Source: Planctomycetota bacterium
GTDB taxonomy: Bacteria; Planctomycetota; Phycisphaerae; UBA1845
Length of the DNA: 64,000 nucleotides
NCBI GenBank assembly: GCA_024275565.1
Contig: JAJRYY010000009.1
Coordinates: 636-64,635, forward strand
Direction: 5' to 3'
This document shows, piece by piece, positions 1,363 to 61,555 of this stretch. Each line of letters opens with the position of its first letter. Position 1 is the stretch's first letter. Under the pieces are notes generated by a model. It searched no databases, was not told the origin of the DNA, and saw only the letters and a list, made by a program, of their open reading frames with translations. The position numbers and the translations under genes are program-made.

Positions 1363-2969
<1,607 letters not shown>

Positions 2970-3025
2970 TGAGTCGTCCTGCGCTGCCTCTGTTTTTTTC
3001 CGCCTCAAGCCCGAACCTTCGTCGC

Positions 3026-25022: not shown

Positions 25023-25320
25023 GATATTGCTCGCACAGATGTACCTCGACCCGGCAGTTTTAGACTGCACTTTCAGGCTGCACCGGATCATTGATCCACA
25101 CGTCCATGATACCACGCCTCCAACACCTCCTTCAAGCACAATCGGCCCGAAAATACGCCTTCCCCTGACTTAATCCAGATCGCGCCGATCCATCGGAATT
25201 TCGGTCGTTCCGCCCTGATGCTGATTGGGTCCGATCTTGTCCCATCGCGCTCTGAGACTGAAGCGGATTGACATTCGTAACCGGATGACCCATCCTTGAT
25301 CCATGTAGCCAAGCCGCAGG

Positions 25321-25506: not shown

Positions 25507-26349
25507 TCACCCCCCAAACACCCCCTGAAACCCCGCAAAATCAACAAGATCAACATCGCCATCACCATCCATATCCGCCCACCGACACCCCGGCCCAGCG
25601 TCGATACTGATCCCGCTGTTCCTGCTGCACTCTTCAAAGTACCGCCAGTCCCGAAGCCCAACCCCATCCGCACTATCGAAATCCCCACTGCCGTCCACAG
25701 CAATATCCCCATAACGAATGCAATCCCACCGGTTGAAGGCAGGCATTTGCCAAGACTTACCACGCCAAGTAATTCGGGGACCGTTGGATGGAAATGCGCC
25801 TTCAGCTATACCATTCGTAACCAACTCTCCATCAATGTACCACCAGAAAAGATTGATCGGCCCGTTAACCAGTTCAAGACGATGAACATGCGGGACACCG
25901 GCCTCAAAATCAGCGAACACAATTGGAAGCAGGTTGTCACGATTCAACTTTGCTCGATCGCGGGCGACAAAAAAAGTGTACCTGATCCCAAACGAGTTTC
26001 CGACAGCCATTGCGGTCGGAGCACCAGCTACAATTTCGGATGCATCTCCGTTCGCTTCGACCTTCCACTCCAGGAAAAAGGAAGGCCCCCCAACGAAATC
26101 GTCAAGTGTACGGCGATAAGAATCGTGTCCCCCTTGTTCTTTGCCAGGGCATTCAACCATATCAAGCTGCTGGATGTACTGTCCATCCTCAACCCAGAGA
26201 ATGGGTACGCAAAATTGTTGCAACAACCCCCAACCCCCCGCAACAGGAAAGGAATCACATTCCCAGGTGAACACCTCCCCGCGCGCAATCGCCGCCGAAA
26301 TCAGCACACATCCTGCCATCACTGCCTTGCTTACCATTGCTCTCAACAT
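25507..26349 (-). CDS. secreted protein of unknown function with a single C-terminal dockerin/EF-hand-like segment
   Basis: Signal peptide present. C-terminus CRWADMDGDGDVDLVDFAGFQGVFGG. Confidence 0.7.
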   Translation of the reverse strand: MLRAMVSKAVMAGCVLISAAIARGEVFTWECDSFPVAGGWGLLQQFCVPILWVEDGQYIQQLDMVECPGKEQGGHDSYRRTLDDFVGGPSFFLEWKVEANGDASEIVAGAPTAMAVGNSFGIRYTFFVARDRAKLNRDNLLPIVFADFEAGVPHVHRLELVNGPINLFWWYIDGELVTNGIAEGAFPSNGPRITWRGKSWQMPAFNRWDCIRYGDIAVDGSGDFDSADGVGLRDWRYFEECSRNSGISIDAGPGCRWADMDGDGDVDLVDFAGFQGVFGG

Positions 26350-26899: not shown

Positions 26900-27060
26900 A
26901 AGTCATTATGATCGGTGACTATGTTCGTATAAGTCATGTTCGCGCAAGTCATGTTCGCATAAGTCATATTCGTACAAGTCATGTTCGAAAAGTCAGGCAC
27001 GGAGAAACCATGTCCGGGGAAGTCAATCCCCGGCAGACGGGCTTTTGAGTCAAAAAGTCA
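26900..27060. repeat. array of nine AAGTCA/GAGTCA hexamers, five within a 15-bp tandem repeat, upstream of the FG-GAP gene
   Basis: AAGTCA occurs at 26900, 26931, 26946, 26961, 26976, 26990, 27020 and 27055, and GAGTCA at 27047. The repeat unit is aagtcatgttcgcNN. Confidence 0.8.
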
Positions 27061-27077
27061 AGCGGCAAGGAGCGACG

Positions 27078-28790
27078 ATGTCTTCAGTTTATCGGAATAT
27101 GTACGTTTTTGTGTGTATGGTGTCGATGTTGAGCGGGGCGGGTTCCGCCATGGGGCAGCAGTTCGTTGAGAGTACGAATGCACGCCTGCCAGCCGCTTCC
27201 CCACTGGAATACTCCGAGCAGGTGGACATGGCCGACATCGATGGCGATGGCGATATGGACATGCTCTTCGCCAACGGCCGCGGGTTCAGCAGCCCACAAC
27301 AGCAGCAGCGCAACCGCCTCTATATCAACGATGGCAACGGATTCTTCGTCGATGAAACGTCGCTGCGCTTACCGACCACCCTTCTGGGATACACGCGGGA
27401 CGTCGAATTCGGCGATGTGGACGGCGATGGCGATATGGACCTCCTCATCGTCAACACGTTCAACACGCAATCCTGGTTGTTGATCAACGACGGATCTGGC
27501 TTCTTCACCCACGACTCCGCCGCACTGCCGACCTCCAGTTTCAGCGGTTCAGACGGCGATTTCGGCGATGTGGACAACGATGGCGATCTGGACATCATCT
27601 TCACGAACTCCGGAACATCAGCCTTCGGAACCGGCATTGACAAGCTGTACATCAACGATGGAACGGGGTTGTTTTCGGACGAAACCGGTACGAGGCTTCC
27701 GGGCGTGGGCGTCGCGCAGAGCATTGATTGCGATTTTGCGGATATCGACGGCGACCTCGATCTGGACCTGATTATGGGACATCGCGACGGTCGATCTCAG
27801 CTTTGGCGAAACGACGGAGCCGGTTTCTATACCGACATCACCCTCAGCAACCTCCCCAACGATGGCAGCGGAACATATTCAGTGGACCCGGGCGATATCG
27901 ATGGCGATGGCGATCTGGACCTGATGGTCGTTCGCGGCAGTACGGATCGGGCATTCCGCAACGATGGTACGGGTGATTTTTTCAATGTGACTGCGGCTGT
28001 CCTGCCGAGCAACCCATTTCAGGATGACAACGACGGCGACTTTTTCGACCTCGATAACGATGGCGACCTCGACTACATCATCGCCCGCCTCGGCAGCGGT
28101 GGCGAGCGGGTGTATGTCAACAACAACGGCGTCCTGCAACTGACCCCGGGCATGATTACAGTGATATCGGACTCAACGCTGGACGTGGAAATCGGCGACC
28201 TCAACAACGATGGTCGCCTGGATGTTGTGACCGCCCAGGGCGAATCCGGAAGCTTCAGAAACCGCATCTACATGAGCAGTGGCCCCATCGACACGCTCGC
28301 ACCCGTGACAGCCCAACTGGACGATCTAGCGGATACGGACGATTCGACTGGTCCCTATGTGGTGCGGGCAGCGATCCGCGACGGGATGACGGGCGATAAC
28401 AATTTCCACGATCGCGGCATCCAACTGCTTTACAGCGTTGGAAACGGATCGCCCCAGACCGTCCCGATGGTCTGGTCCGGCGGCGACCTCTATCGCGGCG
28501 AAATTCCAGGACTGGCCGCTGGTTCCATGGTCGCCTACTCCGTCATGGCCATGGACTGGGCTGGCAACCTTGGCATTTCCTCTGAGATGACATTCGCGGT
28601 CACGGGCGGAATCCTCGGCGATGGCGACGGCGACGGCGATGTCGATTTGAGTGATCTGGGCAGCTATTTCGACTGCGTCGGCACCTCACTGGTGGGGGGC
28701 GACAGTTGTGCTTCGTTCGATTTCGACGGCAACCAGAACGTGGATTTCGCCGATTTTGGATCCCTCCAGCAAGCCTTCACCGGCAGTTAG
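27078..28790 (+). CDS. FG-GAP/VCBS-repeat (integrin-alpha-like beta-propeller) secreted protein with C-terminal dockerin/EF-hand-like tag
   Basis: Repeated D(I/V)DGDGD(M/L)D(L/M) Ca-binding loops. The start is set at the ATG at 27078, which has an AAGGAG Shine-Dalgarno. C-terminus GDGDGDGDVDLSDLGSYFDC...FDFDGNQNVDFADFGSLQQAFTGS. Confidence 0.85.
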   Translation: MSSVYRNMYVFVCMVSMLSGAGSAMGQQFVESTNARLPAASPLEYSEQVDMADIDGDGDMDMLFANGRGFSSPQQQQRNRLYINDGNGFFVDETSLRLPTTLLGYTRDVEFGDVDGDGDMDLLIVNTFNTQSWLLINDGSGFFTHDSAALPTSSFSGSDGDFGDVDNDGDLDIIFTNSGTSAFGTGIDKLYINDGTGLFSDETGTRLPGVGVAQSIDCDFADIDGDLDLDLIMGHRDGRSQLWRNDGAGFYTDITLSNLPNDGSGTYSVDPGDIDGDGDLDLMVVRGSTDRAFRNDGTGDFFNVTAAVLPSNPFQDDNDGDFFDLDNDGDLDYIIARLGSGGERVYVNNNGVLQLTPGMITVISDSTLDVEIGDLNNDGRLDVVTAQGESGSFRNRIYMSSGPIDTLAPVTAQLDDLADTDDSTGPYVVRAAIRDGMTGDNNFHDRGIQLLYSVGNGSPQTVPMVWSGGDLYRGEIPGLAAGSMVAYSVMAMDWAGNLGISSEMTFAVTGGILGDGDGDGDVDLSDLGSYFDCVGTSLVGGDSCASFDFDGNQNVDFADFGSLQQAFTGS

Positions 28791-45503: not shown

Positions 45504-46520
45504 TTACGCGATAGATATAACGATGGCGCGACTGTCCTCACGTTCCGTTTCGATCTCAACGTCAAGAAACTTACCAATCAGATCAACATGCGTTTCAGAA
45601 TGACGAGACAATCCCGTAGACCGAAACGTTCCAGACCCCGCGATCGCCATCGGCAGCAACAACTGATCCGTCAGATACTCTCCAACCGGAGCAGATGACC
45701 GAAGATAACGCTGACACTGCTGAACCGCATGGGAAGCGACAGCCTCAGCAGCTCGACCAACCTCACCGAAACCCGTAAAAACTTCCGTCACGTTCTCATA
45801 CCCAAGCTCGATCGTCACAATATTTCCAGGACCCACAGGGCGATCGATCTCAACAACTTCCGCTTCACCCTCATCCCAACCGAGACGCTTCCGCATGACG
45901 CGAACTTCCCGATCAGCGATCTTCCGATCAAGACTCGATACAACCGCCCGCCCACATCGCCGCACCAGATCGCCACGCTCCACAATGCTGATCCCACCGA
46001 AAGATTCAGCAGGTGTCACATCCACAACCATACGTCCCCCACCCGCCGGATAGAACCCATACCTCTCAAGGGTCACCGATACCTTCGGACCCATCCGATT
46101 CACAAGCGGAAGGTACGACCGCTCAAGAAAGTCAAACGGAGGTGCATACGGATTATGCGTCCCGCCCTCAAGCACGATCCGACTCGGCGCTTTCGCAAGT
46201 GCAAGCGGAAGCAAAATCGTCTGCAGCACAAGCGTCGTACTACCCGCCGTCCCAATACTGAACGTATAATCACCACCCACAGCCACACCCGGAACAAACA
46301 CCAGCTCGGTCGAACCCATCTCATCGCCCTCGACCTTACACCGCCCAATCTCAGCAGCAGCACGGACAGCCGTAAGGTGTTGTCGCAGCAGTCCGGGCTT
46401 CCTCCGCTTCGCACGAATATTCTCAATTCGAAACGCCCTACCCGTAACGATCGACAGCGCAAGGGACGATCGCAATATCTGCCCCCCGCCTTCACAAAAT
46501 GAACCATCAACCGTCAACAT
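45504..46520 (-). CDS. rtcA: RNA 3'-terminal phosphate cyclase
   Basis: MLTVDGSFCEGGGQILRSSLALS N-terminus and full-length RtcA similarity. The start is set at the ATG at 46520 with an AGGAGG Shine-Dalgarno; the ORF track begins 15 codons earlier. Confidence 0.92.
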   Translation of the reverse strand: MLTVDGSFCEGGGQILRSSLALSIVTGRAFRIENIRAKRRKPGLLRQHLTAVRAAAEIGRCKVEGDEMGSTELVFVPGVAVGGDYTFSIGTAGSTTLVLQTILLPLALAKAPSRIVLEGGTHNPYAPPFDFLERSYLPLVNRMGPKVSVTLERYGFYPAGGGRMVVDVTPAESFGGISIVERGDLVRRCGRAVVSSLDRKIADREVRVMRKRLGWDEGEAEVVEIDRPVGPGNIVTIELGYENVTEVFTGFGEVGRAAEAVASHAVQQCQRYLRSSAPVGEYLTDQLLLPMAIAGSGTFRSTGLSRHSETHVDLIGKFLDVEIETEREDSRAIVISIA

Positions 46521-46603
46521 CACAACAACCTCCTGGAAAGAACAATTCATCGACAGGGCGACCATGTCTTCCTAACAACAGGGCGCCCATATCTTCTTCA
46601 ACA

Positions 46604-46792
46604 GTGTGGCCCATGTCTTCAGACATGGGGGAGCCGAAGACCACCCGCACAGCAACCCAAACTCTAGCCAAGCCTCAGGGTCCACTGTACGGACCACCAT
46701 CACAACATAAAACGGGTCCCACCGGCGACTCGTCCGCCAGCGTGCTTCATCACAGCATAAAACGGGTGCCACTGGCGGCTTGTCCGCCAGTG
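46604..46792. repeat. REP-like hairpin cluster inside the rtcB-rtcA spacer
   Basis: Module GTGGCCCATGTCTTCAGACATGGGGGAGCCGAAGA (46604-46646), hairpin GGTCCACTGTACGGACC (46679-46697), and a tandem ~50-bp duplication with one CCACyGGCG...CGCCAG hairpin in each copy (46714-46742 and 46766-46792). Confidence 0.8.
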
Positions 46793-46850
46793 TCTATAAC
46801 AAACACAACCATCGCATCCCACACAGCACCCCAGACACACCACAACCACC

Positions 46851-48347
46851 TCAATCATCCGCCGCAGAAGCATCCTTAATCACAAAACGCGCCTTCAACC
46901 GTGCAACCTCAGAAGCCAGCCCGGCAAGCTTCACAGAACGAAGCACCTCATCAAAATCCTTATAGACAGCCGGGGCTTCATCCATCGGATAATTCCGGCA
47001 ATTCGTCATAATATCGCACGTCTCGAACGACGCATTGATCGACTTCTGATCCAGCGACCGGATCGCGGCTTTGCGACCCATCACGCGTCCGGCACCATGA
47101 TTCACACTGTAACAACTAATCTCCGCACCCTTATCCGCCACCATGACAGCCGACCCCCGCTGCGGATCACCCGGCAGCAAAATAGGATGCCCGCTCTTGG
47201 CAAACGGCGTATCCTTCAACGCATAATGACCACCAGGAAACGCCCGGGTCGCACCCTTACGCATCACCCAGGAAGGTCGGTTATTCACAATCTCCTTCCG
47301 CGCAATATTATGACTGATGAGGTAAACCAGCTCACCAGACACACCCGGAATGACCTCCTGAAAAGCCTCCAGCACAAGCGCGTTAATCAGCAGATGATTC
47401 ACAGTCGCAAAATTCGCTCCCATGGACATATCATCGATATAAGCATTCGCCTCAGGCGTCCCAAGCGGTGCATAACACAAATGCCTGTCATTCCCAGGAT
47501 ACTCTATACCCCACCGGTCAAACTTCCGCTGCAACGCCTGAAACTGTCCCATAGCAAGGTTGTGACCAAATCCACGCGATCCACAGTGCGAGAGAAACGC
47601 GACATGCTTATCCCGCAGCCCGAAGGTCTCAGCACAGTGCTTCGCCCGGCTGTCATCACCAACCTCCACCACCTCACACTCGCCAAAATGATTACCGCCA
47701 CCATACGACCCAAGCTGCGTAACCTTCTCCCTGAACTTCGGAAACGCCCCGGAGTGCAGTAGCCAGTCGAGTCGAGCACCCAGCGCATCCCGGGTTTCAT
47801 CGTGTCCCAGGTGGAAAGAGTCCTCACAACGCGTCGCCCACCGTGCAGGGACACCCATCGCCTCACAAACCCCCTGCGACGCACCTTCGATCGCAACGCG
47901 TCTCCCCAGCGGCTCGCCCACATGCCTCGATTTTCGGACGCTGCGCTGGCCCCGCCCCGCTCCCGTAGGCGTCCGCTCACAAATCGCCTCAATCACCGCC
48001 CGCCGGGTACGACGATCCAGAACCTCATTTTCAGGCAAATCAAGCTGCAATAAGCTCATGGAACACTTGATATCCACGCCTACGGGACCGGGGTAGATGT
48101 GGGAGGCGGAGGCCATCACGCAGCCAATGGGGGCGCCATACCCGATATGGGCATCGGGGTTCAGTACCACTTCATCCACGCCGGGGGCGAGGCGGGCATT
48201 GACCACCTGCTGCAAAGTGGCGTCATCAAACGTATCAAGGATAGCCTCGGTCCCAATAACCGTTATTGGCTTCACCTTACCGTCAGCCACCGGCAAAATA
48301 GACGTTGCCGCACCCGTACTCACCAGTCTGTTCGTATGCTTCGCCAT
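46851..48347 (-). CDS. rtcB: RNA-splicing ligase RtcB
   Basis: Metal and GMP-site motifs NPDAHIGYG, GGGNHFGE and SHCGSRGFGH. The start is set at the ATG at 48347 (MAKHTNR), with a GAGGAG Shine-Dalgarno 7 nt upstream. Confidence 0.95.
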   Translation of the reverse strand: MAKHTNRLVSTGAATSILPVADGKVKPITVIGTEAILDTFDDATLQQVVNARLAPGVDEVVLNPDAHIGYGAPIGCVMASASHIYPGPVGVDIKCSMSLLQLDLPENEVLDRRTRRAVIEAICERTPTGAGRGQRSVRKSRHVGEPLGRRVAIEGASQGVCEAMGVPARWATRCEDSFHLGHDETRDALGARLDWLLHSGAFPKFREKVTQLGSYGGGNHFGECEVVEVGDDSRAKHCAETFGLRDKHVAFLSHCGSRGFGHNLAMGQFQALQRKFDRWGIEYPGNDRHLCYAPLGTPEANAYIDDMSMGANFATVNHLLINALVLEAFQEVIPGVSGELVYLISHNIARKEIVNNRPSWVMRKGATRAFPGGHYALKDTPFAKSGHPILLPGDPQRGSAVMVADKGAEISCYSVNHGAGRVMGRKAAIRSLDQKSINASFETCDIMTNCRNYPMDEAPAVYKDFDEVLRSVKLAGLASEVARLKARFVIKDASAADD

Positions 48348-48385
48348 CAGAATACTCCTCACGTTCCATGTGTACTGATAACCAT

Positions 48386-48402
48386 AAGCACCCTGCGTGC
48401 CA
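48386..48402 (-). promoter_or_regulatory. sigma-54 (-24/-12) promoter of rtcBA
   Basis: The minus strand reads TGGCACgcagggTGCTT, with correct GG-N10-GC spacing, about 40 nt upstream of the rtcB ATG and facing the divergent rtcR. Confidence 0.78.
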
Positions 48403-48498
48403 GTTAGTCAAGTGTTGATTTATGGTGAAAAACGCCTGTGTGGTGCTGCGGATTTCCGAAAAGTTGATAAATCTGGATAGTTTTTTATAATCCTCGCT

Positions 48499-50106
48499 AT
48501 GTTGAACGTCGCAATCGGAATGCTGGGCATGATGCGGGATCGCGGGGATGGACCGGATCGGTGGTCGCAATGGCGCCCTACTGTGTCTTTGTGTCAGCAC
48601 GAGGATCTGTTGATCAGCCGTCTCGAACTGCTCGTCGAGACAGGATCGATGGATCTGGCGAATCGGGTGGCAGCCGACGTTCGCTCGGTATCCCCCGAGA
48701 CCGAAGTTCGCCTCCATATGATCGAATTTGGCGATCCATGGGACTTCGAGAATGTCTACAGCGTCCTGCACGGGTTTGCCCTGGATTACCAGTTTGACAC
48801 CGATCAGGAGCGGTATCTGATTCATGTGACCACGGGTACCCATGTCGCTCAAATCTGCACCTACCTGCTGACGGAATCCCGGCATCTTCCCGGGCGGTTG
48901 ATTCAGACGGCGCCTCCGAAGCGGCGTAGTTCTGGGCAGGCTGGCCGGTATACGATTATTGATCTGGATTTGTCGAAATACGATCGAATCGCGCAGCGTT
49001 TTGAAAGCGAGCAGCGCGAAGGATCTGAATTCCTGAAGGCTGGGATTCAGACGCGTAATGTTGCTTTTAATCGCATGATTGACGAGATCGAATATGTGGC
49101 GATCCACTCGCGGGCGCCGATCCTGCTGACGGGTCCGACGGGGGCGGGGAAGTCGAGTCTCGCCCGTCGTATCTTTGATCTGCGGAAGTTGCGGAACAAC
49201 GTTGCGGGTCGTTTTGTGGAGGTCAACTGTGCGACCTTGCGTGGTGACGGAGCGATGTCTGCTCTTTTTGGTCATACGCGTGGATCGTTCACGGGGGCTG
49301 CTCAGGATCGGGCTGGATTGCTGAAGGAAGCCCACCTTGGGATTCTGTTTCTTGATGAGGTTGGCGAGCTGGGTCTGGATGAACAGGCGATGCTCTTGCG
49401 GGCTGTCGAAGAGCATCGTTTTCTTCCGCTTGGATCGGACAAGGAGGTCAGCAGTGATTTTCAGCTGATCTGCGGTACGAATCGCGACCTCGGGGCTGAT
49501 GTCCGGTCGGGTCGATTTCGCAACGATCTGTTGTCCCGGATCAACCTCTGGGCATTTGAACTGCCGGGGTTGGCGCAGCGGCGTGAGGATATTGAACCGA
49601 ACGTTCATTTTTCTCTTGAGCAGGTCACGGTTGCGACGGGCCATCGTTTTCGGTTCAACAAGGAGGCATTGGATATGTTTCTGCGGTTTGCGGAATGTCC
49701 GGATACCCCCTGGACCGGGAATTTTCGAGACCTCGACGCTGCCATAGCCCGGATGGCGACCTTGGCGCCGTCCGGGAGGATTACGGAGGAGGCGGTGGAT
49801 CGTGAGATTGATCGCCTCAAGCGGTCGTGGCGTGATTCTGGAACGTCTGCTTCGGTCGATGGTACGCATGTTCTGGAAGCCCTGCTGGGAGACAGGCTGG
49901 ACGACCTTGACGAATTCGACAGGGTTCAACTCGAGCGTGTGGTGCTGGTCTGTATGGAGTCGCGGTCCTTGTCGGTGGCTGGCCGTCGTTTGTTCGCTGC
50001 CTCAAGGCGTAAGCGGAAGGCGCCGAACGATGCGGATCGCCTTCGGAAGTATTTGTCGCGGTATCGACTGGACTGGTCCATGGTGAAAGACGCTCTTCCC
50101 GGGTGA
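48499..50106 (+). CDS. rtcR: sigma-54-dependent transcriptional activator RtcR
   Basis: RtcR-type N-terminal (CARF-like) domain, AAA+ core with Walker A GPTGAGKS and the sigma-54 contact loop GSFTGA, and a C-terminal HTH. It is divergent from rtcB. Confidence 0.92.
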   Translation: MLNVAIGMLGMMRDRGDGPDRWSQWRPTVSLCQHEDLLISRLELLVETGSMDLANRVAADVRSVSPETEVRLHMIEFGDPWDFENVYSVLHGFALDYQFDTDQERYLIHVTTGTHVAQICTYLLTESRHLPGRLIQTAPPKRRSSGQAGRYTIIDLDLSKYDRIAQRFESEQREGSEFLKAGIQTRNVAFNRMIDEIEYVAIHSRAPILLTGPTGAGKSSLARRIFDLRKLRNNVAGRFVEVNCATLRGDGAMSALFGHTRGSFTGAAQDRAGLLKEAHLGILFLDEVGELGLDEQAMLLRAVEEHRFLPLGSDKEVSSDFQLICGTNRDLGADVRSGRFRNDLLSRINLWAFELPGLAQRREDIEPNVHFSLEQVTVATGHRFRFNKEALDMFLRFAECPDTPWTGNFRDLDAAIARMATLAPSGRITEEAVDREIDRLKRSWRDSGTSASVDGTHVLEALLGDRLDDLDEFDRVQLERVVLVCMESRSLSVAGRRLFAASRRKRKAPNDADRLRKYLSRYRLDWSMVKDALPG

Positions 50107-52043: not shown

Positions 52044-55000
52044 TTATGGAGCGGTATCGCCCCGGCGTACATCCTGCATCGCTCTTTGGATGAGAGGTCG
52101 ATAATGTGTGCCGACACCTTCCTTGATGAGGTTTTCCGCTCCTTCCAGCAATGATTTTGCTTTGTCGAGGTCGCCTGAGCGTCGGTAGGCTTCTGCGAGG
52201 TGGTAAATGGCGGGGACGTATTGCCGTTCCTTTTCGAGCAGCTTTGTGAGGAGTGCGATGGCTTCCGGATATTCTCCGAGCTTGACGTGCGTCCATGCGA
52301 GCGTGTCCTTGACGGTTGGATGCCCATGGACCTGGGCTGCGCGCTGTGCGTAGGCGAGTGCGTCGCGCGGTCGATCCATTTTATCGCTCAGGAGGAATGC
52401 GAGGTTGTTGAGTCCTATAATGTTGGTGTCGCTTATTTCCAGCAGGGCTTCATAGGTTTGCCTCGCGTTCTCGTAGTCTTCCTGCCGCTCATAGACGTTG
52501 CCAAGTCTGGCAAGGATGTAGATTTTCTCGGCATCGATGTTCGATGTTTCGATGATGCCCTGCATCAATGCTATTGCTTCTGAATCCTGCTCAAAATGTG
52601 CGCGGAGAATGGCGAGGATGTGGCGTTGTGCCCGCTCGAGCGTCGGGTCATCCAGTTTTTCGCTGAACAAGCCGACGGATTCTTCCTTGTCACACGAGCG
52701 AATGACGGCGACTCCGATTTCTTCCAGTGGACGTAATGTGCCGAACCCGGAATCTCGGAACGCCTTCAGGAACAATGGTACTGCCAATTCGAGCTGCCCG
52801 GTGTGTGCCAGCAGTTCGGCGTATCTTGCCTGAATGATCGTGTTAATTTTATCCTCAGGGACGACCTCCTTGTAGTATGTCAGCCCGCGATCGTATTGCT
52901 TCAGGGTGATGTATGCGCCAAGGAGGGATGCGACCTGGTCGGAATCGTATCCACTTAGTTTGGCTGCCTTCTCGTAGTCGACTATCGCGCTGGCTGCATC
53001 GCCGACCTTCATCTTCAACTCGCCGCGCTGGGTCACCCAGTAGGGATTGTCCTTGTAGCGATTTGCCATGGACGTCACTATGCGAATTGCGTCTGTATAT
53101 CTGTCATGTACCTGATACATGGCGACGAGATGTTTCGCCACCTTGATGGCTGACGGATCGTCGCGCAGAATTGATTCGAGCCCCTGGAACGCGAGTTCAA
53201 GATTGTGGACGAGTGCATACCCATCCGCCAACAGCAGACGTGACTCGTAGTTCTGGAATTTCGGATCGACGCTTCTGATGCGTTCGAGCTCACGGATCGC
53301 GATAGGCCAACGCCCCTGTGAACCGTACAAGCGCGCTCGCTGCAAGGTTGCGTTGAGATCGTCTGGATGCCTGTCGAGATAGCGCGAGAGGTGTTCGATG
53401 GCGTCATCGACGCGGCCTGAGACGATTGAGACTGCGCTGTTGAGCAACATCACGTTCGGATCTTCCGGGTAACGCCGCTCAAAATCCTCGACGGCCTGCT
53501 GTGCGAGTTCCTTCTGGTGTGTTCGGAAAAACAGGTCGATTTTTCGACGCCGGAATTGAATGGCGATCTGTGTGGATTTCTGATCTGCGAGGTTGATTGC
53601 CCGATCGTACCATTCCAAAGCCGCTTCGAAGTCGCGTGCGTCAGTTTTAAAGGTGGCGAATGCAGCACACACTTCCAGGAATTCACCATGCGAGGCTGCG
53701 CGTTGCAGTGCGGCTTCTGCCCGTTTCATGTCGCCCTGCACATGCCAATGTTCTGCGAGAAGAAGCTCTGCTTTTGCTTTGGATTCCGGATCGGTCGCTT
53801 TTTTCGCATACCCCTGCAAGACCTCGAGGGCGCGATCGGTCTCACCAATGGAGCGGAAGAATTTTGCGGCGATCAGGATCGTGTTGATGCGTGTGTCGGG
53901 TATTTTGAGGGCGTCATCGAAACATGCGACGGCATTTGGAATCTGCTTGGTGCGGATGTAGAGGTCCGCCAGCGCGATGAGATTTTCAACATTGGATGGC
54001 TGACTTGCCCGAATACGCTCTCGTCTCTGGATGCCCTCCACAGGCGTGGATTTTTCGCGAAGCGTCAGCAACTGAGACTGGACCCACGAATCGTTGGGGA
54101 TCAGTTTGTCGCAATATTGAAGCCGCCGCACCAGCTCTTGCGGATTTCCCTGGACCGATGCGATGATCGCCAGCCCCTTTTGCGCCGCGCCGAGGTTTGG
54201 ATTGGCTTCTACTGCCCTTGTAAAGTAGGTGCTTGCCTCGATGATGCGCGGCGGGGTGACAGACATTTGCGACTGCGCCATCAAGGTGAGCACATCGGCA
54301 TTGGTGGGCTGCTTCTCCAACGCCAGCTTGAACGATGAAATCGCCCCCTCATGGTCGCCCAGGACCTGGTACACACGGCCGCGATACGAGAGGCCGTCCG
54401 CCCCGTCGATGTTTTCCTTCACGGCGGCTTGAACAATGGATTCCATCTCTTCTTCGTCGCGGGCTTCGGCGGCGGCGGCGAAACGTCGGTCCAGGATTTC
54501 GCGGAGGAATTTCTGCCGTATCCCCTGATTTACGTTTGATTCGGGGGCGAGAAGTGCCGTTTGTGCAAGCTTGAGTGCAGCGACGTATGCGTCACGATTG
54601 CCATGCTGCAATTCAAGCTTGGCGATGCGGAAATTCCGTTCAAAATCGCTGGGAATCTCTTCGATCACCTTCATCTGGGCGTCATATCGCACCTCAGGAG
54701 CCATGTCTGGATCAGACACAGTCTCAAGCATCTTGAGGACCACGCTGTCTGGAGATTCTGCCATCCCACGGCGCACCAAAGTCAGCGCCTTGTCGTTCTG
54801 TTTCGCCTCATTGAGAATCTGCACCGCAAGCCGCAGGCAGGTGATGTTGGCTGGTTCATTTTGCAGCAGAGACTCGAGTATGGGCATTGCATCTGCCCCC
54901 TTGCCTGCGTCGTATAGCGCCTTGGCTTCCCGGTACAGATCGACCGGGGCTTCACGGAAGTAACTGTCGCGAATCGCGTTTGCAAGCTCCACCTGTCCGC

Positions 55001-56549
55001 GCCGCTGCAACGCCGTCATCTTCACGCGCAGTGCTTCTCGATTCTCCGGACTGCGTCGCAGGGCTTCGTCGACGGCTTGCAACGCCATCATGTCTTTGTT
55101 TGTCTCCAGCAAGATCTGTCCGTACAGCACCCAGCAGGAGGCGTCGGCTGTGTCATCGCCAATCGCATCGGCGATGGCTGACTCCGCGGCGCCTGGGCTT
55201 CCGCTTCGCAACAGGAGCTGTGCGAGCAAGCGACTGTTCTGCCAGTTTGGCTTTCCAAATTGCTTCCTCGCGTGCTCAAGAAGCGTGATCGCCTCGCGCT
55301 CGCGCCCCTGCCCGACTCGAATCTTGCCCATCGTGTGCAGACCTGGACCCTGATCCGGAAATTCACCCGATGCCAGCACTGCAAAACCCTCAGCACGATC
55401 GAGAACCTCTGTGTACTCCTCCGAACCGGGATCGACTGTGGCTGCGTGTGCGAGACATTCTTCGGCGGCTTTTATCATGGTCAGATAAAGTGCGAACTTG
55501 CGCTGGAAGGTTTTGAATCCTTCGCGTCTGATGCCGAGATCGATGCGACTCTGACAGATTTTTACTGCTTCAAGATGATCGCCCTGGTATCCCGAAAGCT
55601 CGGCCAGGAGCATGTATGGCATGAACCCCCTGTCGTAGATGGCGATGCTTTCTTCCAGCAGCTTCCTGGCGTTGTTGTAGTACTGCTCTGCTTCTTTCGC
55701 CAGGGCAGGGTCTCGTACAACCTTGTACCAGCGAGCCACCCAGTACTGGGCAAACTGAGATTTGACATTGCCCGCGATTTCAGGATCGTCCCCGGAAAAT
55801 TGCTCCGCTGCACGGAAATATTTCAATGCGTCTTCGTGCTTGTTGTTGGCAGAAAGATACCGGGCAAACGTGTAACGCACACGCGCAGCCTCCTCGCCAG
55901 GCGTCTGGTGAACTTCGATCAGGCGTTTCAGTATGTTTTCTGCTTCCTCGGTGCGACCTTCAAGATGGATGATGCTCGCCATCGACAGCGCATACTTGAC
56001 TACGTTTGGAGCAACCCGGACCGCTCGGCGAATGTAGTCAATCCCCTCCCGACGATTTCCGCCGTCCTTCTCTGACAGACGCAACAATGCCGTCCCCAGA
56101 CTGTAAAGCCCGAGCGGATTCTCCTGGTCGACTGCGAGCAATTCCTCGGATGCTTTTTTGACGCGTAACCAGCCTGCCGGCGTGCTGTGCATTTCCACCA
56201 GCTGGTTGGCTTTCTCGATGCCTTTTTCATGCGCCTCGACCAGGGAAGGGTCCTGATTGATCGCCTTCACCCAGAGCTCCCATGCCCCCTCGTCGTCGCC
56301 CTTCTCGTCGAGCATCTTTCCGGCTTCGACATAATACTTCGCGTCTCCGGAAACATTGGCTGCACGCATGTAAAAACTCTTGGCTTGCAACCAGTCGTTC
56401 TCGCTGGCACATTTCTTCGCCAGCTCAACATAGTGCGTTGGATCTGTCTGTCTCAGCGACAGAACCATGATCACGCCCACCGCTGTCATCACCACAAATC
56501 CTGCAAACGTCAGAGCACCGACGAGTGGCTTGTTTATTTTCCTGGCCAT
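52044..56549 (-). CDS. 1501-aa membrane-anchored tetratricopeptide-repeat protein
   Basis: N-terminal TM anchor (LVGALTFAGFVVMTAVGVIMVL), then TPR-like A/L/Y/E-rich 34-aa periodicity along nearly the whole length. Confidence 0.85.
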   Translation of the reverse strand: MARKINKPLVGALTFAGFVVMTAVGVIMVLSLRQTDPTHYVELAKKCASENDWLQAKSFYMRAANVSGDAKYYVEAGKMLDEKGDDEGAWELWVKAINQDPSLVEAHEKGIEKANQLVEMHSTPAGWLRVKKASEELLAVDQENPLGLYSLGTALLRLSEKDGGNRREGIDYIRRAVRVAPNVVKYALSMASIIHLEGRTEEAENILKRLIEVHQTPGEEAARVRYTFARYLSANNKHEDALKYFRAAEQFSGDDPEIAGNVKSQFAQYWVARWYKVVRDPALAKEAEQYYNNARKLLEESIAIYDRGFMPYMLLAELSGYQGDHLEAVKICQSRIDLGIRREGFKTFQRKFALYLTMIKAAEECLAHAATVDPGSEEYTEVLDRAEGFAVLASGEFPDQGPGLHTMGKIRVGQGREREAITLLEHARKQFGKPNWQNSRLLAQLLLRSGSPGAAESAIADAIGDDTADASCWVLYGQILLETNKDMMALQAVDEALRRSPENREALRVKMTALQRRGQVELANAIRDSYFREAPVDLYREAKALYDAGKGADAMPILESLLQNEPANITCLRLAVQILNEAKQNDKALTLVRRGMAESPDSVVLKMLETVSDPDMAPEVRYDAQMKVIEEIPSDFERNFRIAKLELQHGNRDAYVAALKLAQTALLAPESNVNQGIRQKFLREILDRRFAAAAEARDEEEMESIVQAAVKENIDGADGLSYRGRVYQVLGDHEGAISSFKLALEKQPTNADVLTLMAQSQMSVTPPRIIEASTYFTRAVEANPNLGAAQKGLAIIASVQGNPQELVRRLQYCDKLIPNDSWVQSQLLTLREKSTPVEGIQRRERIRASQPSNVENLIALADLYIRTKQIPNAVACFDDALKIPDTRINTILIAAKFFRSIGETDRALEVLQGYAKKATDPESKAKAELLLAEHWHVQGDMKRAEAALQRAASHGEFLEVCAAFATFKTDARDFEAALEWYDRAINLADQKSTQIAIQFRRRKIDLFFRTHQKELAQQAVEDFERRYPEDPNVMLLNSAVSIVSGRVDDAIEHLSRYLDRHPDDLNATLQRARLYGSQGRWPIAIRELERIRSVDPKFQNYESRLLLADGYALVHNLELAFQGLESILRDDPSAIKVAKHLVAMYQVHDRYTDAIRIVTSMANRYKDNPYWVTQRGELKMKVGDAASAIVDYEKAAKLSGYDSDQVASLLGAYITLKQYDRGLTYYKEVVPEDKINTIIQARYAELLAHTGQLELAVPLFLKAFRDSGFGTLRPLEEIGVAVIRSCDKEESVGLFSEKLDDPTLERAQRHILAILRAHFEQDSEAIALMQGIIETSNIDAEKIYILARLGNVYERQEDYENARQTYEALLEISDTNIIGLNNLAFLLSDKMDRPRDALAYAQRAAQVHGHPTVKDTLAWTHVKLGEYPEAIALLTKLLEKERQYVPAIYHLAEAYRRSGDLDKAKSLLEGAENLIKEGVGTHYRPLIQRAMQDVRRGDTAP

Positions 56550-56675
56550 AATGCGAGATCACTCCGTACGGGTCATGCTTGCAGATCAAAAGTGCACACC
56601 AGTTAGACGCTTCCTACCAAAAAACGCACCAAGCTTCCTGCTCAGTCTTACTGCTCAGTCTTTCTGTCCATCTTC

Positions 56676-57470
56676 CTACAAAGCTTCCTGATCGTCTTCC
56701 AGTTCGGCTTCCTGTTCAGCTTCCAGTTCAGCTTCCTTGATCGCCTTCCAGTCAGGCCAATGTTCTTCAATCAGCAAGGGCAGGATGCGCGACAATATCT
56801 CGCGTGTCTCCTCGATCGCCTCTTCACGCGTTGGGAATGTCACCGTCCCGACGGTCACCTCAACCTTGCTATAGTATGCCTGACTGTCGTATGGGTTCGT
56901 AATCGCGCGAATGATCTCGCCTCGTCTGGCTGCAAATTTTCCATTCGCGTGGAACGTATAGATCACGGTCATGCTTGCGCTGTTGAAAATGCCCGTTTTC
57001 ACGAACGTAAGAACGCGAACCGTCACTTCCTTATCACCCTTCAGCGTGGGGATGGTCAGCGTGACGTAATCCTGCGAATCTGCCTCATAACCAGAAGCTG
57101 CCAGGCAAATATCGGGCGTGTGCAGATGCCGCTCGGTATTTCCGGGGTAGTAGGTCACCGACACCCGCGCGTAACGGCGCGGATCGTCGGGAGAATCGAG
57201 TTTCGTATTTTCCAGTACCCAGTTGATGTACTGATCCGTGCCAAGGGTCTCGACCACCGAAGATTCGAGCTGGTGAGATTTCACAAGATGGTATTTTCCA
57301 AGACGCCGCTCATCGAGTTGAGAGAGGGGTTTCCGAAGCTGAGCAGCCACCTTTTCCGTCGATACCCGGACGAGGCGTGCAAGGGGTTGCAATCCCAGGG
57401 CTGTAACACCCAGCAACATCGTGCAGATGAGAAACGGTTTGTTAAAAAAAGGAGGTGCCTGCTGACTCAT
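56676..57470 (-). CDS. EpsI-like (exosortase-associated, DUF3485-type) protein
   Basis: N-terminal TM helix and an EpsI-type motif HTPDICLAASGYE preceded by RVSVTYYPGN. The C-terminal tail is acidic (EAELEAEQEAELEDDQEAL). Confidence 0.65.
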   Translation of the reverse strand: MSQQAPPFFNKPFLICTMLLGVTALGLQPLARLVRVSTEKVAAQLRKPLSQLDERRLGKYHLVKSHQLESSVVETLGTDQYINWVLENTKLDSPDDPRRYARVSVTYYPGNTERHLHTPDICLAASGYEADSQDYVTLTIPTLKGDKEVTVRVLTFVKTGIFNSASMTVIYTFHANGKFAARRGEIIRAITNPYDSQAYYSKVEVTVGTVTFPTREEAIEETREILSRILPLLIEEHWPDWKAIKEAELEAEQEAELEDDQEAL

Positions 57471-57653
57471 TTCATCAATCGCTGTAAACTGTTTATCGAC
57501 AATGCTTTAGAAGATTCGTACGCATTCGAAGCACTTCCGGGGCATAGGATTATCGGGCCTTGCTTAAAGGTTACTCCGCCACCGAATACCGGTCAATTGT
57601 CCCGGGCATCGCTACCACCGGGAGACCGGATACTGGTCAATCGGAAGACCACC

Positions 57654-57850
57654 CTCGTCAATCCATGCTGGAGTCTCGTCAATCCGTGCTCGAGTATTGC
57701 GAATCCTGCCATGTCGGGCAGTGAGACGTCCGGGGCTGCACTCAACCGCTCCCCCATCTTCCATGATTCCCCTGTGCTCCCCGCACTCCCTGTGCTCCCC
57801 GCACTCCCTGTACCCCCTGCACTCGCTGTACTCCCTACCCTCCCTGTACG
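57654..57850. repeat. two different tandem-repeat arrays in a 464-bp gene-free spacer
   Basis: A 21-bp unit ctcgtcaatccRtgctSgag occurs twice (57654-57695). An 18-bp unit tccctgtgctccccgcac occurs about 4.5 times (57768-57850). Confidence 0.8.
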
Positions 57851-57934
57851 AATTGGCGACGATTGGTGTTCAGAGACGCTTTGCAATGTCCGATAAACCA
57901 AAATGACAATATCGCAGACTATCGGGAGCGACTC

Positions 57935-58633
57935 ATGAAATCGATCATCGTAGGGTGCGGCGGGCATGGTCGTGTGGTACTGGATATCCTCCGGGCCGCC
58001 GAGATTCATGAGGTTGTGGGTTTCCTCGATTCCAATGCTGATATGAGTGGTCGGCGGATCGATGGGCTTGAGGTGCTTGGTGATTTGTCTGCCCTGGGGC
58101 GTGTTCGACATGACCTTGAGGTCGAGGGAGCAATCATCGCGATCGGCGACAACGGCGTTCGCCGCCATTATGCTGATATTTGCGAACGTACAGGCCTGAA
58201 GCTGGTCAACGCGATCCACCCGTCTGCGAATGTGGCTGCCAATGCTATTATCGGACGTAACGTCGTCATCGCAGCCGGCGCCCTCGTCTGCGCTCACTGC
58301 CAGATCGGCGATTCGGTCATCCTCAACACCGGCAGCATCGTCGACCACGAAACCATGATCGGGACAGCCACGCATGTCTGCCCTGGCGCAAGACTTGCCG
58401 GTCGAGTCTCAGTCGAATCGGGTGCTTTTGTGGGCATCGGTGCGACGGTCATTCAAAGCGTGCGGATTGGTTGCGATGCGATTATCGGAGCTGGTGCCGT
58501 CGTGACTGACAACGTCGCACCGCTGACGACCATGGTCGGCGTGCCAGCCCGCGAAATCAAACGGACCTGCGACGACGAATGGTCGACCTGGCTGGTGCCG
58601 GAATCTCTCCGCCGAACAGCACCCGTTTCATAA
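57935..58633 (+). CDS. NeuD/PglD-family sugar O/N-acetyltransferase (hexapeptide)
   Basis: MKSIIVGCGGHGRVVLDIL Rossmann-like N-domain plus a left-handed beta-helix C-domain. The start is set at the ATG at 57935 with a GGGAG Shine-Dalgarno. Confidence 0.85.
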   Translation: MKSIIVGCGGHGRVVLDILRAAEIHEVVGFLDSNADMSGRRIDGLEVLGDLSALGRVRHDLEVEGAIIAIGDNGVRRHYADICERTGLKLVNAIHPSANVAANAIIGRNVVIAAGALVCAHCQIGDSVILNTGSIVDHETMIGTATHVCPGARLAGRVSVESGAFVGIGATVIQSVRIGCDAIIGAGAVVTDNVAPLTTMVGVPAREIKRTCDDEWSTWLVPESLRRTAPVS

Positions 58634-58732: not shown

Positions 58733-61555
58733 TTATGGGCGCGGTGACATGGATTGCCCGCTCCAGGACTGCGTTGCATTGCCGGTCCCGGAGAGTTCCT
58801 GACGGATGCGGAGCAGGTCGAGCGCCTGAATGACCCCGTTCCTGTCCATGTCGATGTAGTCAAGATCCTCGCCTTCTGGATTCTGGAATACCCCATTGAA
58901 CATCTGACGGAAACGTAGCAGATCCAACGCCTGAACCACGCCGGACTGATCTATATCGCATGGCAGGAAACCAATGTCGATGCGATCCGGTTCATTCACG
59001 CCAGGCCCCTGATCGCCGCTGGAAGCAATCGGGTTGCCAGCAAGATCCTCGACGTCTGCTACGATGGTGGTCCAGAAACCTGCTGGAACCGGGCCAGACA
59101 ATTCGACCTGTACCAGCGTATTGTCTGCACTCAATATGCTGATCACCGATGGGTAGGATGGAGCGTCACCCATGAGTGTGAAGGCGCTGGTTGATAATGT
59201 TGCGTCTTCAGCCCCTGCGTCTCGTACCTGTTCTGAGAACAATATTGACAGTGTATCCACGCCCATATCGAACGCCTCACCATCGGAGCTTTCCATGCGA
59301 GAATCGACATATCCGCTATGCGGGAAGGTCGTGGTGCCGGCGTCGTGGACAATCTCCGGCGAGACAGTGTCCATGTCTTCACATACGAACACTTTCACGA
59401 TGAAATCGTCGATGGCTGCTTCCGTCAGCGATACGGTCAGCACATCCGCCACCGAGAAACGAACCCGCATGCTGGCTGTCGGGGTCACAAAATCAGAGAC
59501 ATTGAACGACACGACTTCCCAGCCGCCATCACCGCCGGGTCCGACCGTTTCCAGATTGAACCAGTTCACGCCTCCGTCATTGGAAATTTCGACTTCGAGC
59601 GTATCGTTGTCGTTGTTGTTATCGAACCATCGAGCGTACTCAATTGTCCCCTCCATGCCCTCCAGATCAAAAATCGGCGACGTCAGAATTACCGGCCCGC
59701 CATCGACATCGCAAGTGCCCGCCTGACCAGCACAATTCCCCGTCACGAAGCAGATCGTACCATCCTCAGAATAGTCGTCTTCCGGCTGAGCGGTGGTACC
59801 AATAGGATCCTCGCGAACCCACTGCCCCGTCGTGTTCACCCCCTCGAAGGTTGATTCCCATCCGCCATCAAGCTCGAAATCATCTTCAAATCGAATCTCC
59901 AACGCGCCGACCTCCGCAAAGTATGTTTCGTCTGGCGCATTGAACGGACTGGTGACCACCGACTCCTCTGTCGAGGTCGCTGTAAAATAGAATTCCGGAA
60001 CAGAATCACAGGTAGCCGCAGGCAGCGTTGCCTCATACTCATTGCCACCCAACGCCAGCATGGCAACCTGATCGAACGCTCCTCCGTCAAAACGATATAC
60101 CAGCATGGGACTGCCAGGATCAAGCTCTTCCGATCCCATGCTGATTTGCACGCGTATCGTGGTCGTTTCTCCGGGAACGATGGAACCCGGCAGTCCGTCG
60201 GGGAAGGCGTATCGCAGTGGTTGAATGGTCGCGAGTACAGCATCCAGTGTCGCTTTTGCATCGATGCGCCCTGCACCGAACATATTGTCAAAACCAGGAT
60301 CGCCGAGATCCACAGCATTGTTTCTGAGGAACTGCCTGACCTCCTCCACCTGGATGTTCGGATTTAACGAGTACATCAATCCGACCAGCCCTGCGACGTG
60401 CGGCGTCGCCATCGATGTACCGGTCTCATAGTTGTAATCTGCCGGCCCCCCGATCCATGTCGAAAAGACTGCTATCCCCGGGGCACAGACATCCATCCAC
60501 GGACCTCGGTTTGAGGCTGTGTAATAAATGTCATTCTCGCCCGTGGCGGATACCGCGATGGTTTGAGGATAGGCGGCTGGAAAATAGGAGATGTTGCTAC
60601 CATCGTTGCCAGCGGCTGCTACGACCGTGACATCGTTGTCCCATGCATACTGAACGGCGGTCTGCAGGATACCCGCCCCACCACCACCGCCACCACTATA
60701 ATTGACGATGTGTGCTCCATTGTCCGTCGCGTAGGTAATCGCCTCTGCAATCGCTTCCCATGTCCCGGAAAGTCCGTTGAATACCTGCAGGGGCATGATC
60801 GTACAGTTGCTCATGCCCGCAATTCCTGCAGCATTGTTGATCTGGGCACCTGCAATGCCGGCCACATGCGTACCATGTCCGGAGGTCGGTGACGGATCGT
60901 TGTCCGAATTCATAAAATCCCAACCGATCGTGTCATCAATGAATCCGTTGCCGTCGTTGTCCAACCCGTCCGGCGGGTCGTCCACATTGACCCATAATCC
61001 ACTCTGAAACTCTACATGGTCGAGTCGAAGCCCACTGTCTGCTATCGCAATGATAATCGCCGGATCACCCGTGGTGATGTCCCACGCTTCTTCAGCACGG
61101 ATAATCATGGGTCCGTATTGCTCGGCCTCAAAAAAAGGATCGTTCGGTGTAAAGGCTGCACGGGTGATATAATTCGGGACGGCGTATGTGACGCCAGACA
61201 GCTTCGAGATTCGCTCAACCGCCTGCGCAACATCACTGCCGGGAGCGAGGTGAACCACCCGGACCATAGCCAGCGGATGGACCTGCTTGGGCTTGTTTTT
61301 CGCGTGCGGTGCGTGACGAAGCTCGTGCCAGCGCTCAGCGTCTGGTACGCACGCCTGAATACACTTCATCTCCCGTTCGCCGGGAACGTTCCGATAACCC
61401 ACGATCAGCTGATCGGGTACATATGCCAGATCGATCTCTTTGACCGCAACAGGTTCTTTCGTCCTGGTAATGCCAAAGTCGTCGCCCACGCCCCATACAG
61501 CGTGATTATCCCCCGCCATTCCAATGAACAGGATCAAGCCAACAAGTCGCTTCAT
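58733..61555 (-). CDS. secreted subtilisin-like (S8) serine protease with a dockerin-like C-terminal pair
   Basis: Catalytic triad motifs AIADSGL (Asp), HGTHVAGIAG (His) and GTSMATPHVAG (Ser). Signal peptide present. C-terminus DIDQSGVVQALDLLRFRQ...DMDRNGVIQALDLLRIRQ. Confidence 0.9.
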   Translation of the reverse strand: MKRLVGLILFIGMAGDNHAVWGVGDDFGITRTKEPVAVKEIDLAYVPDQLIVGYRNVPGEREMKCIQACVPDAERWHELRHAPHAKNKPKQVHPLAMVRVVHLAPGSDVAQAVERISKLSGVTYAVPNYITRAAFTPNDPFFEAEQYGPMIIRAEEAWDITTGDPAIIIAIADSGLRLDHVEFQSGLWVNVDDPPDGLDNDGNGFIDDTIGWDFMNSDNDPSPTSGHGTHVAGIAGAQINNAAGIAGMSNCTIMPLQVFNGLSGTWEAIAEAITYATDNGAHIVNYSGGGGGGAGILQTAVQYAWDNDVTVVAAAGNDGSNISYFPAAYPQTIAVSATGENDIYYTASNRGPWMDVCAPGIAVFSTWIGGPADYNYETGTSMATPHVAGLVGLMYSLNPNIQVEEVRQFLRNNAVDLGDPGFDNMFGAGRIDAKATLDAVLATIQPLRYAFPDGLPGSIVPGETTTIRVQISMGSEELDPGSPMLVYRFDGGAFDQVAMLALGGNEYEATLPAATCDSVPEFYFTATSTEESVVTSPFNAPDETYFAEVGALEIRFEDDFELDGGWESTFEGVNTTGQWVREDPIGTTAQPEDDYSEDGTICFVTGNCAGQAGTCDVDGGPVILTSPIFDLEGMEGTIEYARWFDNNNDNDTLEVEISNDGGVNWFNLETVGPGGDGGWEVVSFNVSDFVTPTASMRVRFSVADVLTVSLTEAAIDDFIVKVFVCEDMDTVSPEIVHDAGTTTFPHSGYVDSRMESSDGEAFDMGVDTLSILFSEQVRDAGAEDATLSTSAFTLMGDAPSYPSVISILSADNTLVQVELSGPVPAGFWTTIVADVEDLAGNPIASSGDQGPGVNEPDRIDIGFLPCDIDQSGVVQALDLLRFRQMFNGVFQNPEGEDLDYIDMDRNGVIQALDLLRIRQELSGTGNATQSWSGQSMSPRP

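Follow-up and report, generated by a model that had tools for sequence, protein, structure and literature searches.

The described system closest to the locus reported here is the EpsH/EpsI pair of the PEP-CTERM/exosortase machinery, known from the methanolan cluster of Methylobacillus sp. 12S (PMC1569441). EpsI, which is fused or adjacent to an exosortase with eight transmembrane (TM) segments, "has no known function" according to Haft et al. 2006 (PMC1569441), and since then it had always been tied to that enzyme. We analyzed a 64-kb stretch of DNA from a Planctomycetota bacterium (contig JAJRYY010000009.1; the whole stretch is referred to as the window) in which the gene for an EpsI-family protein of 264 amino acids (aa) is followed by that for a tetratricopeptide repeat (TPR) protein of 1501 aa without any exosortase, an arrangement shared by dozens of loci. 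The explanation best supported by sequence comparison is that this arrangement would be a part split off from a sorting locus, because EpsI orthologues directly follow an exosortase in many relatives, and we favor, with modest confidence, an action of EpsI and the TPR protein in trans with an exosortase encoded in a distal trio of genes.

Like EpsI of the described system, the window protein combines an EpsI domain with an N-terminal TM helix. In its relatives, EpsI directly follows or is fused to an exosortase with eight TM segments and Cys, Arg, and His residues, and the locus lies amid polysaccharide export genes (Wza/OPX and Wzc/BY-kinase). The window differs from that system in lacking the exosortase throughout its length and in encoding an EpsI below the cut-off of the family model TIGR02914; moreover, a TM-anchored TPR protein of about 1500 aa is an obligatory neighbor of EpsI here, and the exosortases of the related cassettes belong to an unnamed subtype. 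Whether the pair works with a distal exosortase or by itself, the system is a variant of exosortase/EpsI not described before, and the searchable literature contained no description of this conserved Phycisphaerae cassette, in which the exosortase belongs to an unnamed subtype and the 1500-aa TPR protein is obligatory. The partition of this cassette overturns nothing, and provides a handle on the function of EpsI and on its dependence on the exosortase.

As the original prediction had it, the 264-aa protein has a single N-terminal hydrophobic helix (residues ~12–30 by prediction and 11–34 in the AlphaFold2 [AF2] model), contains the sequences RVSVTYYPGN and HTPDICLAASGYE, ends in the acidic EAELEAEQEAELEDDQEAL, and is followed after 126 nt by the TPR gene. 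The assignment to EpsI was upheld by Pfam, where the protein matched PF11984/DUF3485 with 33.1 bits, above the gathering threshold of 26.1 (residues 24–181). It missed the cut-off of the NCBIfam EpsI family TIGR02914 (16.5 vs. 42.8), and TIGR02914 under-reaches this EpsI clade, because the exosortase-adjacent EpsI orthologue of Phycisphaerae bacterium RAS2, 32% identical to the window protein, likewise received no NCBIfam match. In NCBIfam, the protein aligned best with XrtD (TIGR04152, VPLPA-CTERM-specific), a fused exosortase, over the EpsI region at its C terminus (model positions 295–400); the window protein differs from XrtD in standing alone, in having no linked exosortase, and in its score (29 vs. 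a cut-off of 400). Judged by these profiles, it is a genuine EpsI-family member. A word-indexed search returned 61 homologues of 159–336 aa with 30%–50% identity, all of them stand-alone and, where the source is named, from Phycisphaerae. A profile search of a 50%-identity library with EpsI gave 1334 cluster representatives (394 at E ≤ 1e-30), including a few exosortase-EpsI fusions of ~600 aa (P0255 and P0291).

In a 33-member alignment, H117 and C122 of the PHTPDxC motif were invariant, as were T106, Y107, Y171, S201, K202, E204, H237, and P239, and the acidic tail was not kept among relatives. The AF2 model, built with the homologue alignment, has a predicted local distance difference test score of 91.9 and a predicted template modeling score of 0.86, and consists of the TM helix, a beta-sheet domain, and two long C-terminal helices. 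Its best Foldseek matches in the PDB were DUF1795-like folds of periplasmic or chaperone proteins, DcrB (6e8a) and the Eag/SciW chaperones (6xrr), which share an antiparallel sheet packed by helices. These matches are weak (E from 6e-3 to 5e-2, TM-scores of 0.25–0.43, identity of ~10%–14%) and constitute a lead rather than a classification; transmembrane helices are the ligands of Eag chaperones, a property that would suit a handler of C-terminal anchor helices. A PDB search by sequence found no solved relative of EpsI or of the exosortase, and literature searches on EpsI, DUF3485, IPTL-CTERM, and Phycisphaerae exosortases yielded no functional information.

The 1501-aa protein has one N-terminal TM segment and TPRs along its entire length according to Pfam. 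It is collinear with the TPR protein of the related locus L001 (32% identity over 1576 aa) and, from N to C terminus, with that of the RAS2 cassette (26% identity). By this collinearity, it is orthologous to the TPR protein of ~1500 aa whose gene comes next after EpsI in every intact cassette. The number of terminator-like sites equaled that of shuffled sequence, hence the weak hairpin in the gap between the EpsI and TPR genes (Table 1) does not count as evidence of termination.

The comparison covered 146 related loci. In L008, the most distant EpsI match, we found Wza, an exosortase, EpsI (overlapping by 4 nt), a 1539-aa TPR protein, and a Wzc-like kinase, and its exosortase used as query retrieved 468 homologues, mainly from Phycisphaerae/Planctomycetota. 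RAS2 (L010) and GCA_020639025.1 (L011) carry the full order: a divergent PglD, followed by Wza, exosortase, EpsI, a TPR protein of ~1540 aa, Wzc, and KpsF. Scanning one genome per GTDB species with an exosortase alignment gave 52 loci, annotated with hidden Markov models and phmmer, and in 49 of them the exosortase was followed by EpsI, with TPR, Wzc, and KpsF next wherever the contig continued. EpsI comes directly after the exosortase in intact cassettes, often with a 4-nt overlap. Wza is the outer-membrane polysaccharide exporter and Wzc a tyrosine autokinase/co-polymerase that passes the BY-kinase model; KpsF also passes its own family model. The exosortases pass the generic TIGR02602 (153 vs. 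105.6) and fit no named subtype (XrtA, 141 vs. 208). Over all loci, 66 were intact, 56 were reduced as in the window, and 19 were short contigs with EpsI only. An intact variant in Sedimentisphaerales and related metagenome-assembled genomes (L054–L063) has no detectable PglD upstream and a more divergent TPR protein (1400–1840 aa). Near the intact cassette of L041, a gene at 2790–3560 encodes a classical PEP-CTERM tail (IPEPAT...KKGRRSR).

Against this frame, the window is of the reduced form. Its layout, a divergent PglD followed by EpsI and TPR, departs from the full gene order in lacking Wza and exosortase between PglD and EpsI and Wzc and KpsF after TPR. The absence of an exosortase, claimed for the neighborhood, holds for the entire window: a profile of 24 Phycisphaerae exosortases, run on all its open reading frames (ORFs) with filters off, gave a best E of 1.9, and queries with Wza, Wzc, and KpsF on all ORFs found none. 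Polytopic membrane proteins are encoded by three ORFs only, identified as an M48 protease, a UbiA protein resembling decaprenyl-phosphate phosphoribosyltransferase, and a ClC channel. Thus, the fusion or adjacency to an exosortase described by Haft et al. 2006 is not seen in the window, while it is found in the 66 intact loci and in P0255 and P0291.

Five independent relatives have the same three genes as the window, with TPR proteins of 1506–1649 aa (L001, which is the complete 3.79-Mb genome CP070691.1, L002/3, L004/5, L006/7, and L009), and no exosortase occurs within 10 kb of them. Another 80 loci came from scanning metagenomes with the EpsI alignment. Altogether, 55 loci besides the window have the reduced form, and no exosortase, Wza, or Wzc was found in ~580 kb of their flanks. 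Across 123 EpsI sequences (62 distinct ones from reduced loci, 20 from "intermediate" intact cassettes, and 41 from A2-type intact cassettes), K40, Y107, H117, C122, Y171, N176, K202, and E204 were invariant, and the window protein has all eight. The ratio of nonsynonymous to synonymous substitution (dN/dS) of EpsI was 0.11–0.19 in reduced loci and 0.12–0.21 in intact cassettes; that of TPR was mostly 0.14–0.19 in reduced loci (0.37 for L082/L116, with a partial TPR of 289 aa) and 0.07–0.19 in intact ones. The pair is therefore maintained, under purifying selection unchanged from that in intact cassettes.

The window EpsI retains every strictly invariant residue and deviates at four near-invariant positions: P109 is T or S in the rest of the family, H115 is V in 58 of the 62 reduced-locus sequences, L116 is P in 57 of 62, and I187 is R in 58 of 62 and in all 41 A2-type intact sequences. 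In two genomes with reduced loci, genes near the locus (L001 7118–8794 and L009 20364–20816) encode C-terminal tails with a TM segment and Arg-rich end that hold a Cys motif (DCGEGTA... and IPCGAGAA...), reminiscent of Cys-bearing sorting signals.

Loci with the complementary set of genes were found as well. The GTDB locus L052 reads Wza, exosortase, Wzc, with no gene between the last two, and its exosortase led to a sister clade of ~110 exosortase clusters. All four members sampled from this clade (L052, L064 [CP070744.1], L145, and L146) have Wza, exosortase, and Wzc without EpsI, TPR, or PglD, and their exosortases retain the catalytic Cys motif, E[QER]ACSG[IM]RL. Since the motifs used in the GTDB scan (AGACSGMRS and PDWSHG[FY]L) miss this clade, the fact that it returned neither CP070691.1 nor CP070744.1 is uninformative. 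In neighbor-joining (NJ) trees computed without support values, the trio exosortases cluster with those of the intermediate intact cassettes L117, L119, L091, L111, and L128, and the reduced-locus EpsI cluster with the EpsI of these same cassettes. The reduced form and the trio are exact complements, which suggests a reciprocal split; the partition thus appears to sort the cassette into the sub-modules PglD-EpsI-TPR and Wza-exosortase-Wzc. Flank synteny between the trio loci and the window or other reduced loci was not found, except for DegT after Wzc, and similarity in tetranucleotides and GC between trio and reduced loci gave no discrimination. A comparison of NCBI accession blocks found no EpsI/exosortase pair from one assembly. 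A DegT-type aminotransferase follows Wzc in the intact L136 (18098–19210) and in the trio of L064 (13469–15607), in the latter accompanied by an epimerase/dehydratase. Enzymes of a diNAc-bacillosamine-like pathway appear divided, DegT being found with the trio and PglD with EpsI and TPR.

The sequence comparison shows that EpsI and TPR are orthologous to the cassette genes, that the two architectures complement each other, that their tree positions match, and that purifying selection on EpsI and TPR is unchanged. The following history would account for these findings. The full cassette would couple exosortase sorting to polysaccharide export, and would have been partitioned in the lineage of the window, most simply by duplication or rearrangement followed by reciprocal loss, which would leave the halves at two places of one genome: PglD, EpsI, and TPR at the old divergent promoter, and Wza, exosortase, and Wzc as a separate trio elsewhere. 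EpsI would span the inner membrane once and expose to the periplasm a beta-sheet domain bearing the invariant motif with His and Cys, and the TPR protein would be a membrane-anchored periplasmic scaffold. Still working in trans with the distally encoded exosortase, they may recognize proteins that end in a helix plus an Arg-rich tail, or pass them on, and could couple the release of these proteins to an exported polysaccharide containing amino sugars. One such protein might be the multicopper oxidase of the window (Table 1), which ends in GDIPTMSEWG, a TM helix, and ARRRH. It is a candidate exosortase-class substrate by its score with IPTL-CTERM TIGR04174 (21.1 vs. a cut-off of 20.5), which is marginal and the single example in the window. 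The natural exosortase-EpsI fusions P0255 and P0291, which lie inside the subfamily, also speak for this explanation.

Several results weigh against a split cassette acting in trans. Both halves were never observed in one genome, and the lists of EpsI and exosortase matches have no contig in common. CP070691.1, with a reduced locus, was not among the exosortase matches listed in either of two prefiltered searches, one of which listed homologues down to E ~1e-32. Although imperfect, this is a genuine hint that the pair is retained in at least one genome that lacks this exosortase. Conversely, the trio genome CP070744.1 was not among the 61 EpsI matches of a weakly sensitive search. The reduced-locus EpsI are not cleanly monophyletic in the unsupported NJ trees. 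For the substrate, the marginal IPTL-CTERM score of the oxidase counts in the same direction, as does the literature, in which no source naming a cognate enzyme of IPTL-CTERM was found; furthermore, no function of EpsI has been experimentally shown anywhere (PMC1569441).

Some of these observations would fit a second explanation, which we consider possible and the less probable of the two: that exosortase, Wza, and Wzc were lost altogether and that PglD, EpsI, and TPR form a self-standing module of the envelope. Such a module might handle or modify an amino-sugar glycan or proteins anchored in the membrane, and the invariant His/Cys motif would give EpsI an activity of its own. In keeping with this, CP070691.1 has a reduced locus and no Phycisphaerae-type exosortase cluster among the matches listed, although that negative rests on the word-prefiltered search, of which the best 120 matches were listed. 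PglD accompanies EpsI and TPR rather than Wza, exosortase, and Wzc, selection acts on the pair just as strongly with no exosortase next to it, and neither the window nor the ~580 kb of reduced-locus flanks contains exosortase, Wza, or Wzc. However, in all known contexts EpsI is fused or adjacent to an exosortase (PMC1569441), as it is in the fusions and intact cassettes found here, and an exosortase clade without adjacent EpsI and TPR parallels the reduced EpsI clade in the tree, which would otherwise be an odd coincidence. One window protein also has a C-terminal tail of the exosortase class. The broader proposal, that EpsI is not an obligate exosortase subunit and that EpsI, the giant TPR protein, and PglD are autonomous in a large Phycisphaerae lineage without a genomic exosortase, is hinted at by CP070691.1 and seems to us possible, though less likely than not. 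If true, the invariant His117 and Cys122 would mark an activity of EpsI itself, which might transfer or recognize C-terminal anchor helices or an acceptor linked to an amino sugar.

The original prediction had offered a split or a remnant sorting locus, and only the first of these stood, as the orthologues are exosortase-adjacent in relatives. A decaying remnant, in which the exosortase was deleted and the EpsI and TPR genes are heading for loss, would explain why Wza, exosortase, Wzc, and KpsF are gone from the locus and why the window EpsI is off-consensus at the near-invariant H115, L116, I187, and P109; it is nevertheless highly improbable, and effectively refuted, given that both ORFs are full-length, that the 62 distinct reduced-locus EpsI retain all invariant residues at 30%–50% identity, that dN/dS is mostly 0.11–0.19 as in intact cassettes, and that the arrangement, present in 56 loci, is an old one with a wide distribution.

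Equally improbable is that the TPR protein is a regulator of the PrsT type and its partner an accessory protein, both belonging to the XrtA/PEP-CTERM system of proteobacteria. PrsT (TIGR02917) is likewise a large TPR protein tied to exosortase loci and is the closest NCBIfam family of the 1501-aa protein, but the match (263.6 bits) lies below the family's own cut-off of 312.2 and covers residues 1008–1471 only, in the C-terminal third. The window protein is longer (1501 aa vs. 899 model positions) and TM-anchored instead of being a lipoprotein, as its N terminus, MARKINKPLVGALTFAGFVVMTAVGVIMVLSLRQ, has no lipobox Cys. An NCBIfam scan of 17 window ORFs (genes for polytopic membrane proteins and those adjacent to the pair) gave no match to PrsK or PrsR that passed the cut-off, and the nearby sigma-54 activator is RtcR. 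The cassette TPR has its fixed place between EpsI and Wzc, and the cassette exosortases score below XrtA, as given above. The PrsT identity proposed earlier was thus rejected in favor of that of a cassette-TPR orthologue.

The acetyltransferase upstream of EpsI passes TIGR03570 (208.6 bits vs. 160.8), has PglD_N and Hexapep domains in Pfam, and is 71% identical to the neighbor in L001; a PglD-like acetyltransferase lies upstream in the 56 reduced loci and in most intact ones. The program-made ORF starts at TTG 57863, and alignment to relatives places the likely start at ATG 57935. With the start moved there, the spacer is 464 bp long, and its earlier description as a repeat-filled spacer of that length is correct. 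It occupies the exact place of Wza and exosortase (~2.7 kb) in intact cassettes and is the former divergent promoter region of the cassette. Among the 56 reduced loci, the median length of this spacer is ~310 nt, which is too short to hide a gene. The repeats were considered as a conserved regulatory element and rejected, since they are missing from the 55 orthologous spacers and occur in the window genome only. An Rfam scan of the window from 50 to 59 kb gave no match.

Table 1. Positions of the features discussed in the window
Feature	Position	Strand	Remarks
Multicopper oxidase, 846 aa	13824–16364	+	N-terminal DNRLRE domain
Predicted secreted protein	16452–17279	-	Dockerin-like tail
Predicted secreted protein	23922–25139	-	Dockerin-like tail
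Predicted secreted protein	25507–26349	-	Dockerin-like tail
Predicted secreted protein	27045–28790	+	Dockerin-like tail
Probable RtcA cyclase	45504–46565	-	GGGQILR motif only
RtcB	46851–48362	-	
RtcR sigma-54 activator	48499–50106	+	775 bits; divergent from RtcB
Cys-rich protein, 467 aa	50322–51725	-	Next downstream of TPR; dockerin-like tail
TM-anchored TPR protein, 1501 aa	52044–56549	-	Many TPR Pfam families match
EpsI-TPR gap, 126 nt	56550–56675	-	Weak terminator-like hairpin at 56646–56628
EpsI-family protein, 264 aa	56676–57470	-	ORF list; Pfam PF11984
Divergent intergenic spacer, 464 bp	57471–57934	.	Between EpsI and acetyltransferase genes; holds tandem repeats
Tandem repeat, 21-nt unit x 2	57654–57695		In divergent spacer
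Tandem repeat, 9/18-nt unit CCCTGTGCT/CCCCGCACT x ~9	57770–57850		In divergent spacer
NeuD/PglB(PglD)/VioB-family sugar N-acetyltransferase	57935–58633	+	Divergent from EpsI
Predicted secreted protein	58733–61555	-	Dockerin-like tail

Downstream of the TPR gene, the Cys-rich protein had been called dockerin-tagged, which Pfam did not support, as Dockerin_1 gave no match even at E ≤ 10; the likeness of its tail to the dockerin-like tails of neighboring proteins is by eye alone. Its gene was syntenic with EpsI and TPR in none of the five relatives examined (L001, L002/3, L004/5, L006/7, and L009). Because of the lack of synteny and of a Dockerin_1 match, the Cys-rich protein is placed outside the EpsI-TPR module.

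Two further features of the window were observed. An RNA repair locus extends over 45504–50106. In addition, six predicted secreted proteins, among them an M28 peptidase, an FG-GAP protein, an S8 subtilase, and the Cys-rich protein, end in a duplicated dockerin-like tail of the form DxDxDGxVDxxDFxxFQxxF. Three of the six matched Dockerin_1 weakly (19.0, 22.9, and 32.7 bits), two of them reaching the cut-off of 22.9.

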